The notes: generated by a model from the sequence alone, not told the origin. Shown: positions 5,254 through 53,936, counted from the stretch's first letter. The stretch is 64,000 nt of DNA from a virus (IMGVR_UViG_3300032286_000925:1-64000); one strand, 5' to 3'. A program made the numbers and translations.

Positions 5254-5668
5254 CTACTTTCTACGGGCATACCCGTAGTTCTAGTTTGCCAGAGTATAAG
5301 ACATAAGTCAAACACCTAGCCGTGCGGCGTTTTATTTTTTAATTGCGAACCTAATTCTGATCTATTAATTGTTTTACGGCACTAACCCCTAACCTTTCGG
5401 CTAGGGGCTAGGGCTGCTTAGGGCTTAGTTCCAAACTTCCAAAACTTTTTTCTAATCCAAAAAGTCCCGTGTGTTCGGCAGAACACCTTGTGCTTACAAG
5501 GAACTAAAACTAAAGTTCCGTTGTCTTTTGGCTCTTTGACTAGTCCCCTTGCGAATAGTTCGGCTTGCTCGGCATCGCCTTTTTGCTCTATAAACATAGT
5601 TCTCCTTGTTATCGGTGTTGCTGGTTGGGGGTTGCCTAACCCTGCCTTTCGGCAGGGCTAGGCTGGGA

Positions 5669-9746: not shown

Positions 9747-10220
9747 TTACCAAGCAGAACTGAATACTGCGACTACTAACCAAGTTGAGAGCAGTAGCCA
9801 AGGACCAAGTGGCACACTTGTTCCTATCGGTGCTTTCCGCATAATCACATAAACAACTGCGAGTAGTGAGAATAGAACTGATAGTGGAATGATTAGCAGA
9901 GCAATAAGCGGTGAATACACGCCAACTGCGAGCAGTAGGGCAGTAATGAACTTCACATCACCCATTCCAACTACATCAAAGTAGTTTAGGACAAGTCCAA
10001 TAATGAACCAAGCGAACGGCAAGCCAACTGCGAGCAGTAGGTTTATCCAACTTTGAGTAGCGACATTCACAGTGATAGCGGTAATGAACGCTAGGGCGGC
10101 GAATGGTAGAACAATTTTGTTCGGTAAGCGGTGTAACTTGTAGTCAATGACTATAAGCGGTATTGTAGCAACCGCAAGATAAACAAGCGGTAGAGCAGAA
10201 ATAATGTCTAAGATAGGCAT
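9747..10220 (-). CDS. Prepilin peptidase (A24 family, Flp/TadV-like)
   Basis: Multi-TM protein with D....LPN and GMGDVK catalytic Asp motifs and a C-terminal PLGPWL. Confidence 0.88.
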   Translation of the reverse strand: MPILDIISALPLVYLAVATIPLIVIDYKLHRLPNKIVLPFAALAFITAITVNVATQSWINLLLAVGLPFAWFIIGLVLNYFDVVGMGDVKFITALLLAVGVYSPLIALLIIPLSVLFSLLAVVYVIMRKAPIGTSVPLGPWLLLSTWLVVAVFSSAW

Positions 10221-49993: not shown

Positions 49994-50125
49994 TTTTAAT
50001 CTTTCTTTGAGCTCTTTTAGCCTGTTCGTACAGACGCTTCTTTTGCATCTGGCGATTGAAGCGAATCTCTTTCATGAGTTTTTCATATTCTTCATTTGTC
50101 ATTTGTCATTCTTTCTTTATGGACG

Positions 50126-50199
50126 TCGAGGATGTCGGACTTGAACCGACGACCGAACGATTATGAGTCGTTTGCTCTAACCTGCTGAGCTAATCCTCG
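50126..50199 (-). tRNA. tRNA with CAT anticodon (elongator Met or Ile2)
   Basis: Full cloverleaf: acceptor CGAGGAT/ATCCTCG, D stem GCTC/GAGC, AACGA-CTCATAA-TCGTT, T loop TTCAAGT; no encoded CCA. Confidence 0.92.
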
Positions 50200-51463: not shown

Positions 51464-51667
51464 GTTGTATTTTTTGTCTCCGTAATAAGGGGGATTATAG
51501 AGACAGTCTACACCACATATTGATAATTAATTTGGAAGACCTAGTACTGACTTTCCCCAAGTTTGGACCTTGGTTCCAGAGGTTCCCACTTACATTTCTG
51601 TAAGTCGTCTCAAGCATTTCTGCTCTGCTGGTTGGTCTTGTGGACTCAGCAGTAAAGAGCCTATAGA

Positions 51668-51741
51668 GTGACCCTGTAGGAGTCGAACCTACGACCTGTG
51701 CGATCTAATTGCACCGCTCTTGCCAACTGAGCTAAGGGGCC
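51668..51741 (-). tRNA. Atypical tRNA or pseudo-tRNA; apparent anticodon TAG (Leu) on a short-variable-loop body
   Basis: Canonical D and T arms (GTAGG-TTCGACT-CCTAC); mismatches in the acceptor stem and at 31-39. Confidence 0.7.
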
Positions 51742-51761
51742 AACCAGATGCGCTCTGGCGG

Positions 51762-51903
51762 GCGGTCTACATTTTCTTGCGACGGCGAAACACACCAGTG
51801 GACTGTGTAGATTTGCACTACCGACTACTACTTCCGCGTCGACTCGTAGCACCTTGGCTACGCCAGTCCTTAGAGATTCCGTTGCCTAGGACGGGTAGAC
51901 CGC
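51762..51903 (-). ncRNA. Putative structured RNA closed by a 9-bp stem
   Basis: GCGGTCTAC/GTAGACCGC closing stem; internal hairpins GTCCT/AGGAC, CGTAGC/GCTACG and GTAG-TGCAAAT-CTAC. Confidence 0.55.
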
Positions 51904-51927
51904 TTTACGCTCTTTTGTCTACAAGCG

Positions 51928-52010
51928 TGGACTGCGAGGAATCGCACCTCGGAAACTCCTTACGAAGCACCTCTAGCTAATTTATCCATGGTAGTCAATT
52001 AGCACAGCCC
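51928..52010 (-). ncRNA. tRNA-like RNA with non-canonical core
   Basis: Acceptor-like GGGCTG/CAGTCC-A, T-like arm CGAGG-TGCGATT-CCTCG, GCTAATT/AATTAGC arm, CTTC-GTAA-GGAG arm. Confidence 0.6.
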
Positions 52011-52147
52011 TAATCAGTAAGTCCCGTAGGAAGGCTACTTCGCCCAGTAATCTGGGTATTCCCGGGTGCGGTTTACTGAGTTGCAACTACTCCCAAAGAC
52101 GAAACAGTGGGCGGAGTTATCTACGCCTAGTTGCCATAACGTAGCAG

Positions 52148-52490
52148 TGGAGATGCGGGGAATCGAACCCCGGTCCAGTTAAGGATCTATTGTTCTTCTA
52201 CAAGCTTAGGTAGTTTATGTTACGGCTTAGATGTGTGACCTACCAGACCATCTAGTCGTTACCACTCTTTAAAGTCTTGTGGGAGAGACTTTTGTTTTGT
52301 CCTACTTATTTAAAACCTGACTGCCCACCTAGAACTAGTGCTTTGTCAGGGGCCTAAGCGTTGCGATTAAATCACGCGGCTAGAGCGTATGCAGATGTAT
52401 TAGCATTTATTGTTTTGACAGATTCAAGAGATACTGTCATCTCTGCTTGCTTCACCAATTTCAGAATAACTGTCGAAACCAGTCATCCCC
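52148..52490 (-). ncRNA. ssrA: tmRNA with tag peptide (A)ANTSAYALAA
   Basis: 5' GGGGATGACTGGTTTCGAC; 3' GGTTCGATTCCCCGCATCTCCA; ATAAAT precedes gct-aat-aca-tct-gca-tac-gct-cta-gcc-gcg-tga. Confidence 0.95.
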
Positions 52491-52759
52491 TCAATATTTA
52501 GTTATAAGTAAATTATAAGGCTAATCTACCTTGTTTACAAGCTTACGCTTGATTTTATCAAAAATCTTAGGACGTTTTTTAGACGCCTTACCATTCTGTC
52601 TTCCAGAACTTTTTACTTCCGAGACTGGCTTTCCGCCAGGCTTACCTTTTGCCATTTAATCTCCTTTGTTGAATATAAATATATTAGCAGATAATTTTGT
52701 GTTGCGCAACTCAATATAATTCATTATAATGGAACTACGTCTAAACATAAGGAGACAAA

Positions 52760-53609: not shown

Positions 53610-53936
53610 CTACCGCTTTATTCTAACTTCTATTTGACTAAGGGTAGTTCCCGATTTAATAGCTCTTCTAATGGATTTTCTCTCGGAGTCCGTGGTCCCA
53701 CCCCAAATACCCATCTCATTGTTCTCAACAGCATAAACTAGACAGCGCATCATATAAGGACACTCTCTACATACAGCTTTTGCACCGGCTTCATTATAAT
53801 ACTTGCTAGTCCCAGCTCCACCAGCAAAATCATTTAAATCCACTGGATAAAATGCATCAGGGTCAACTTCAGCGCAAGGCGCTACACCAAACTCACCAAA
53901 ATCGGGGTAGTTCTCTATATTTAAATTAAAAATCAT
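53610..53936 (-). CDS. whiB: WhiB-family Fe-S transcription factor
   Basis: C...DPDAFYP...AK.VC..CP....CL..A.....GIWGGT...ER. Confidence 0.93.
   Translation of the reverse strand: MIFNLNIENYPDFGEFGVAPCAEVDPDAFYPVDLNDFAGGAGTSKYYNEAGAKAVCRECPYMMRCLVYAVENNEMGIWGGTTDSERKSIRRAIKSGTTLSQIEVRIKR

Follow-up and report, generated by a model that had tools for sequence, protein, structure and literature searches.

Which RNAs are encoded behind the transfer-messenger RNA (tmRNA) gene of the virus IMGVR_UViG_3300032286_000925, and do they form one molecule or several? The window analysed here is a DNA stretch of 64,000 nucleotides (nt) (IMGVR_UViG_3300032286_000925:1-64000), which is part of a 95-kb phage record in IMG/VR that is 71% complete. 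On its minus strand, positions 51533-52490 comprise the tmRNA, one atypical transfer RNA (tRNA) and about 540 nt without a credible open reading frame (ORF) or Rfam match. An earlier, sequence-only reading had proposed several unrecognised structured RNAs behind the tmRNA, and all features that it listed were found in their places. We consider it fairly probable that the stretch is an RNA operon of an uncultured freshwater actinobacterial phage, located in a variable slot and carrying, besides tmRNA and an odd tRNA, no fewer than five small structured RNA modules. Judged from related loci, the region is a chain of separate modules shuffled among the relatives and not a single large RNA. Two designs are predicted for these modules (Table 1): cloverleaf-like tRNA mimics without anticodon (A and B-b), and pseudoknot modules (X1, B-a and C, which is larger), whose 3'-terminal strand pairs with the loop of one of their own hairpins. 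The minus strand was assigned because of G.U pairs and GNRA loops.

The absence of a credible ORF, already noted before, could be corroborated. The longest ORF overlapping the region has at most 86 amino acids (aa), and the two longest are without Pfam match. Coding was ruled out because alignments of the relatives contain insertions and deletions of 1, 2, 6, 8 and 14 nt. A covariance search of Rfam had been proposed as a check. With Rfam 15 and E≤10, X1, X2, A, B-a, B-b and C matched no family; only noise (at most 17 bits, E≥0.5) was obtained for the window and for the divergent variants L047 and L069. In a cultured-phage collection, the sole blastn match of the entire kilobase was a 68-nt tRNA in a Vibrio phage. 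Exact-pattern scans of prokaryote genomes from about 185,000 species with motifs of C and B-a gave no matches, although such patterns miss diverged copies.

Related IMG/VR loci were gathered in three ways, by the flanking MT-A70 gene, by a MarR-like gene and by DNA motifs, and were compared by blastn and covariance searches. In this comparison C, B-a and X1 evidently retain their predicted folds through compensatory changes. The support is strong for C and B-a, X1 is supported in four variants, and A and B-b are conserved and fold-compatible.

For module C, the modelled fold consists of a P1 helix of 6 base pairs (bp) with a conserved 16-nt loop, the GNRA-capped hairpins P2 and P3, a variable P4/P5 arm and a pseudoknot between GACC in the P1 loop and GGUC near the 3' end. 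Three relatives have a short GAAA hairpin instead of the P4/P5 arm. The GAAA-tetraloop hairpins described previously within 51540-51660 are present. Searching with a covariance model of C (R1) yielded 25 copies at 111-162 bits, one of them truncated, and 22 distinct rows, in which 97.6% of the alignment cells are paired. Ten pairs change on both sides, whereas shuffles gave 3.4 (none of 500 reached ten) and slid controls 0-2. Covariation is seen in the pseudoknot pair 26-141 (GC 13, AU 5, GU 2, other 1), and P1 is wholly rewritten in L069 to CCGUAG/CUACGG. Conservation begins at AGGCUC, 3-5 nt past the ...CCAC of the preceding element, and stops at CCA, which is invariant in the 21 full-length rows. 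Within the phage record C is single-copy. Further scans added nothing: the nine matches in metagenomes with the 5' motif of C and the nine new IMG/VR loci with its 3' motif were all chance matches. A same-sense 9-mer, CCACAAGAC, is common to tmRNA and the P1 loop of C, with a likelihood close to chance.

Module B-a is predicted to form a 6-bp stem, GUAGAC/GUCUAC, a variable hairpin, a mini-hairpin and a pseudoknot, in which the loop strand AGAG pairs with the 3' strand CUCU. All 13 variants retain this pseudoknot, as GGAG/CUCC, AGAG/CUCU or GGAG/CUUC and in the coordinated 5-bp forms GGGAG/CUCCC and GAGAG/CUCUC. In stem 1 a U-A pair is replaced by C-G, and hairpin 2 changes from CCG/CGG to CCA/UGG or has CCU-GNAA-AGG in its place. 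For X1 the model gives two hairpins. The first has 6 bp, and its loop GCAACUA forms the pseudoknot with the 3'-terminal UAGUUGC; the second lies between the two. The 7-bp pseudoknot strands are invariant in the four variants. Stem 1 changes from CUACGU/GCGUAG to CCACGG/CCGUGG, and hairpin 2 alternates between CCCA/UGGG, CCCG/CGGG and CCUG/CAGG. Both stems pointed out earlier in this part, GCAACUA/UAGUUGC (52134-52128 with 52089-52083) and UCAGUAA/UUACUGA (52079-52073 with 52020-52014), are present in the window.

The tRNA-like RNA proposed for 51928-52010 corresponds to module A, with acceptor, D-type and T-type arms. Its acceptor stem is 7 bp and its D-type stem 4 bp long, the anticodon arm is replaced by a long GUAA-capped arm (a GNRA loop), and the T-type arm reads GAGG-UGCGAUU-CCUC; the 3' end is the discriminator A followed by C, without CCA. 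Module B-b has the acceptor GGACUG/CAGUCC, a D-type hairpin, a variable arm, the T arm GUAG-UGCAAAU-CUAC and the discriminator A. At the anticodon position it carries an arm with a variable loop of 7-13 nt. The consensus of both T-type loops is UGCRAWU. Among the six variants of A, 97% of the cells are paired, compared with 36-54% in slid controls; the values for the ten variants of B-b are 98.5% and 26-39%. Neither element was called by ARAGORN or matched RF00005 even at E≤10, and neither has a 7-nt anticodon loop, so that they were not assigned to the tRNAs.

The proposal of new non-coding RNA classes is therefore borne out in part: several modules are without Rfam match, and covariation among homologs exists for C, B-a and X1, is thin for A and B-b and is absent from X2 and B2. 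One larger feature had to be divided. A multi-hairpin domain closed by a 9-bp stem had been drawn at 51762-51903. This stem exists in the window, but the domain consists of B-a, B-b and the unique spacer B2. The 3' half of the stem, GUAGACCGC, falls in B2, together with a small hairpin (CCAGA-GCGCA-UCUGG). Because B2 is absent from the relatives, the closing stem is not a conserved feature.

Module order differs between the relatives. The arrangements tmRNA-C, tmRNA-B-C, tmRNA-B-a-C, tmRNA-B-a-tRNA-Asn-tRNA-Val, tmRNA-X1-...-A-B-C and tRNA-like-X1-tRNA-Trp were found. Module B-a occurs without B-b in L006, L063, L069 and L041, and X1 lies in relatives between a tRNA-like 3' end and tRNA-Trp. 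In L007 the position equivalent to 51798 is joined directly to that of 51662. The entire cluster is absent from L002 and L003, where the gene of a 44-aa basic protein abuts the MT-A70 gene. The modules are frequently more conserved than the adjoining tmRNA: in L049 tmRNA is 70% identical and C 90%, in L051 tmRNA is 78%, B 88% and C 92% identical. By this comparison the modules are independent, conserved cassettes. An obligate partnership of C with tmRNA was considered and rejected, as C occurs without tmRNA in one 97%-complete relative and another has tmRNA and B-a without C.

All modules start 1-5 nt past a tRNA-type acceptor end. For B-a this holds in every variant, which directly follows the 3' end (discriminator plus C) of tmRNA, tRNA-Trp or module A. 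Furthermore, tRNA-Asn starts 1-2 nt past the CCA of C in L043, L047, L049 and L054. A CCA is not encoded by any tRNA-type gene here (tRNA-Met, tRNA(UAG), tmRNA, A and B-b); all of them end with the acceptor strand, A and C. Module C, unlike these genes, ends in the invariant CCA. Because the tRNA-type genes encode no CCA, cuts by an endonuclease or exonucleases after the discriminator and CCA addition are needed.

The layout fits release from one precursor at the tRNA-like elements. Because each module starts a few bases past a tRNA-type 3' end, one precursor cut by RNase P and RNase Z is the most likely mechanism. The whole cluster would be transcribed as a single precursor from the promoter-like site ahead of tmRNA. 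Host RNase P would cut the 5' side of each tRNA-shaped element, and RNase Z or exonucleases would cut past each discriminator base. The modules would thereby be released as discrete small RNAs, like the species 1 and 2 RNAs of phage T4 behind tRNA-Arg. No terminator-like site was found inside the cluster on the minus strand. The promoter-like site itself falls inside the end of the 44-aa basic ORF.

Table 1 Features of the RNA cluster, its surroundings and related loci (window positions unless another locus is named)
Feature	Position	Strand	Remarks
tmRNA, one-piece	52147-52490	-	ARAGORN; Rfam RF00023
Module X1, 65 nt, predicted H-type pseudoknot	52082-52146	-	Four distinct variants
Block X2	52011-52081	-	7-bp stem UCAGUAA/UUACUGA enclosing two hairpins; this phage only
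Module A, putative anticodon-less tRNA-like element	51928-52010	-	Six distinct variants
Module B-a, 57 nt, predicted nested pseudoknot	51870-51926	-	13 distinct variants
Module B-b, second putative anticodon-less tRNA-like element	51799-51869	-	10 distinct variants
Spacer B2, 55 nt	51743-51797	-	This phage only
Atypical tRNA, tRNA(UAG)	51668-51742	-	RF00005, 46.2 bits (gathering score 29); ARAGORN
Module C, 130 nt (125 nt in most relatives)	51533-51662	-	Covariance model R1; covariation
Promoter-like site (TTGTAA, 17 nt, TATAAT)	52512-52540	-	Consensus matched at 10 of 12 positions; about 21 nt ahead of the tmRNA 5' end
Basic ORF, 44 aa	52521-52655	-	MAKGK...NGKA.KKRPK[IV][FW]D..KR[KR]LV; without Pfam family
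tRNA-Met, bona fide	50125-50199		No encoded CCA
Interleaved small ORFs	L004:1258-1506, L044:3851-4042, L041:3067-3441, L040:5390-5797, L051:4661-5332	Same as modules	Loci of relatives
Further module, 62 nt, three hairpins	L056:9168-9229, L066 ~9816-9877	-	Between tmRNA and C

Several observations weigh against this interpretation. The folding energy is no better than that of shuffled sequences (minimum free energy z = -0.65 and -0.76), and the case therefore depends on the comparison with relatives. That comparison is uneven. For A only one compensatory pair, in the D-type stem, was found, which is not significant (reached by 96 of 500 shuffles), and for B-b two such pairs (10 of 500). Block X2 had no relative by blastn and no match in an IMG/VR pattern scan, and B2 is absent from all fetched relatives; comparative support is lacking for both. 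Two alternatives for closing C are mutually exclusive, the helix GGCU/RGUY, which is 100% paired with one-sided changes only, and the 3-bp P5, which is 78% paired. Promoter- and terminator-like sites are no more numerous in the region than expected from shuffled sequences, so that the promoter-like site is suggestive by its position alone. Short contigs from four of the six metatranscriptome runs that contain the stretch at least in part cover only 52168-52482, within tmRNA, and contigs cannot reveal RNA ends. Finally, because small protein genes lie between the modules in several relatives, the cluster would in part also serve as mRNA, and separate promoters may exist for some modules.

The tmRNA is genuine. 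It scored 134.5 bits with RF00023 (gathering score 47) over model positions 1-374, and ARAGORN gave the tag ANTSAYALAA. Its acceptor stem has a G3.U70 pair, and no CCA is encoded. In metatranscriptome contigs from three studies a tmRNA variant was observed, in which 85 nt (window 52211-52295) are swapped for about 38 other letters. It is shortened in the same part as the tmRNA of about 297 nt of the relatives L036 and L037. The atypical tRNA, which had been placed at 51668-51741, was recovered by both ARAGORN and Rfam. Its anticodon is UAG and its variable arm is short; an A.C mismatch closes the anticodon stem. The acceptor stem is imperfect and, in the ARAGORN register, has U1-A72, G2-C71, G3.U70 and a single C.A mismatch. 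Of these, G3.U70 is known as the identity pair for alanine. It is conceivable that this tRNA would read Leu codons while charged with Ala. In L049 and L057 it is 95% identical and also lies directly ahead of module C.

Instead of mature RNAs, the modules could be cis-acting furniture of the operon, namely structured spacers and tRNA-like cutting marks without a life of their own. They might keep neighbouring tRNA-type domains folding apart, set or protect the 3' ends of tmRNA and tRNA, or serve as homology patches for the swapping of gene cassettes. The constant position of B-a and X1 between two tRNA-type elements agrees with such roles, as does the complete loss of the cluster between the same flanking genes in two relatives. 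The interleaved small ORFs point in this direction, too. In several relatives they lie between the modules, encode 63-223 aa and in several cases contain hydrophobic, membrane-like stretches; in L004 an 82-aa ORF has a full copy of module A on either side, and 27 nt from the start of A recur as a partial copy in L007. This suggests that the RNA cluster doubles as a gene-cassette exchange site. One known tRNA-like processing signal is the mascRNA of MALAT1. The plant-mitochondrial t-elements, which are tRNA-shaped, non-decoding and located beside other transcripts, have been interpreted as places where RNase P and RNase Z cut (PMC1920247) and are a precedent for tRNA-like cutting marks. A and B-b match these elements structurally, with cleavage predicted in our case. 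In contrast to t-elements, the cluster also contains pseudoknot modules, C is not a cloverleaf, and the elements are far more conserved in sequence than a cutting mark needs. Module C is much too elaborate for a spacer, with 125 nt, four or five helices and a pseudoknot, long invariant single-stranded junctions and the invariant terminal CCA, and it persists in the 97%-complete relative without tmRNA. Moreover, conservation of the modules equals or exceeds that of tmRNA. We therefore regard cis-acting furniture as a rather unlikely account of the cluster.

If the modules are mature RNAs, as we prefer, a function can be proposed for C. Because C ends in a pseudoknot and CCA, it may imitate a tRNA acceptor arm. 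In the tRNA-like structures at the 3' end of plant RNA viruses such as turnip yellow mosaic virus, the acceptor arm is formed via a pseudoknot of the 3'-terminal strand with a hairpin loop and runs into CCA. C likewise has a 6-bp hairpin and a pseudoknot helix of 4-6 bp, followed by 0-2 variable bases and the invariant CCA. The loops joining the two helices are long (8 and 3 nt), so that these may or may not stack coaxially. The differences are that C belongs to a DNA phage and would be a separate small RNA and not a genome end; no homology exists. C, and perhaps B-a and X1, would then be the counterpart of the plant-virus structure in a DNA phage: a free small RNA that is produced by the tRNA-processing machinery, imitates the acceptor branch of tRNA and occupies or decoys a host factor for tRNA 3' ends. 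Speculatively, this factor could be the CCA-adding enzyme or a synthetase, RNase P or RNase Z, or else an anti-phage toxin by which the acceptor ends of tRNA are modified or cut. As the more speculative last step of the mechanism, the mature RNAs, chiefly C, would in this manner engage a tRNA-handling host factor. We judge this function doubtful. A relation to the bacterial Y RNAs (YrlA) was rejected, as no Ro/TROVE gene was found in the 95-kb, 71%-complete record; matches to RtcB, CCA-adding enzyme and SmpB were likewise absent from it.

One or more of the pseudoknot modules B-a, X1 and C might also be self-cleaving ribozymes of an undescribed class, which cut the precursor and thereby generate a free 3' end on the tmRNA or tRNA-like element ahead of them. 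B-a sits exactly at the end of the upstream RNA, and its strands follow each other as P1, 5' strand of P2, mini-hairpin, 3' strand of P1, variable hairpin, joiner and 3' strand of P2. This nested double-pseudoknot order and the position are shared with ribozymes like that of hepatitis delta virus (HDV). HDV-like ribozymes have a catalytic cytosine in the joiner before the 3' strand of P2 and a G.U pair at the cleavage site. The joiner of B-a is AAU, AAUU or AAA; the nearest cytosine is replaced by U in L053 and missing from L041 and L069. In addition, its first P1 pair is G-C and not G.U, and four extra bases lie 5' of P1. On these grounds B-a was rejected as an HDV-like ribozyme. Invariant junctions, a pseudoknot and GNRA loops, as in many ribozymes, are found in C, but no ribozyme family of Rfam matched even at E≤10. 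Self-cleavage is accordingly an improbable explanation.

A further possibility is that the blocks are functionless, that is, scars of recombination and the remains of decaying tRNA and tmRNA genes. A and B-b do resemble tRNAs after loss of the anticodon loop, the acceptor and anticodon stems of the tRNA are damaged, B2 and X2 are unique to this phage, and B2 repeats the UGUAGAC start of B-a. However, helices kept through compensatory changes are unexpected of relics, and modules that are 85-98% identical occur across phages with tmRNAs of only 70-85% identity. Decay of the whole set is thus very improbable; for X2 and B2 the relic reading may apply. A riboswitch or other cis-regulatory leader of the methyltransferase gene, suggested by the compact aptamer-like fold of C and its location 69 nt upstream of the MT-A70 start in the window, can practically be dismissed and was ruled out by the variable downstream context, since C precedes tRNA-Asn, a new promoter-like cassette start or unrelated sequence in relatives and those with the MT-A70 gene often lack C ahead of it.

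Among known systems, the large phage RNAs GOLLD and ROOL had been named as analogues of this cluster. These are single ornate RNAs of several hundred nt, often near tRNA genes and with Rfam models. The analogy does not fit, since the present cluster is a chain of independent cassettes of 57-130 nt without Rfam match. The species 1 and 2 RNAs of phage T4 (rnaC and rnaD) are closer. They are 139 and 119 nt long, annotated as small stable RNAs, and the T4 annotation gives no function. The T4 order is tRNA-Arg, rnaD, rnaC with gaps of 1 and 6 nt, and the likeness consists in RNAs directly behind a tRNA-type gene, on the same strand and without ORF. A tRNA-type T arm is present in rnaC, and rnaD has a terminal CCA. 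The systems are not homologous in sequence or structure: the T4 tRNA region, searched with filters off, gave no score above 7.2 bits with model R1. Unlike that of T4, the present cluster is headed by tmRNA, includes pseudoknot designs and has a greater number of module types, and the host is actinobacterial instead of enterobacterial.

The work on T4 revealed small stable RNAs hidden in phage tRNA clusters, to which the T4 record assigns no function. In the abundant actinobacterial phages of freshwater, the present locus would offer a well-delimited and comparatively rich set of these RNAs, with two putative anticodon-less tRNA mimics and three predicted pseudoknot modules, of which C is as intricate as a small riboswitch or ribozyme. 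If the modules are released by RNase P and RNase Z, the principle of tRNA punctuation would extend to phage operons in which RNAs and small protein genes alternate. Should C be an acceptor-arm mimic or a ribozyme, it would represent a new functional RNA class, linked to translation or to tRNA-attacking defence. The covariance models R1 and R2 could seed new RNA family entries.

The relatives contain a further module, which is absent from the window. It has 62 nt with three hairpins, and L047 carries its 3' part, ahead of position 5517. The two full copies differ by several compensatory changes, e.g. UGAGGU/ACCUCA versus UGCAGU/ACUGCA.

With respect to the setting, two WhiB-family genes (56-63 bits) were detected, at 53610-53936 on the minus strand of the window and at 72667-72867 of the genome. 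WhiB genes are the usual mark of actinobacterial phages. The G+C content is about 43%, and DNA runs containing the stretch in whole or in part are mostly labelled as freshwater or lake metagenomes. Because of these three observations, the host is likely a low-GC freshwater actinobacterium. The slot of the cluster is bounded by the conserved gene of the 44-aa basic protein on one side and the MT-A70 methyltransferase gene on the other. The basic ORF is kept in nearly all relatives, and its stop usually lies 15-50 nt ahead of tmRNA; the protein could be an RNA-binding partner of the cluster or merely the conserved left border of the variable slot. Elsewhere in the window, positions 2100-24650 form a 22-kb stretch without any ORF of at least 200 aa and with a strong AT skew.

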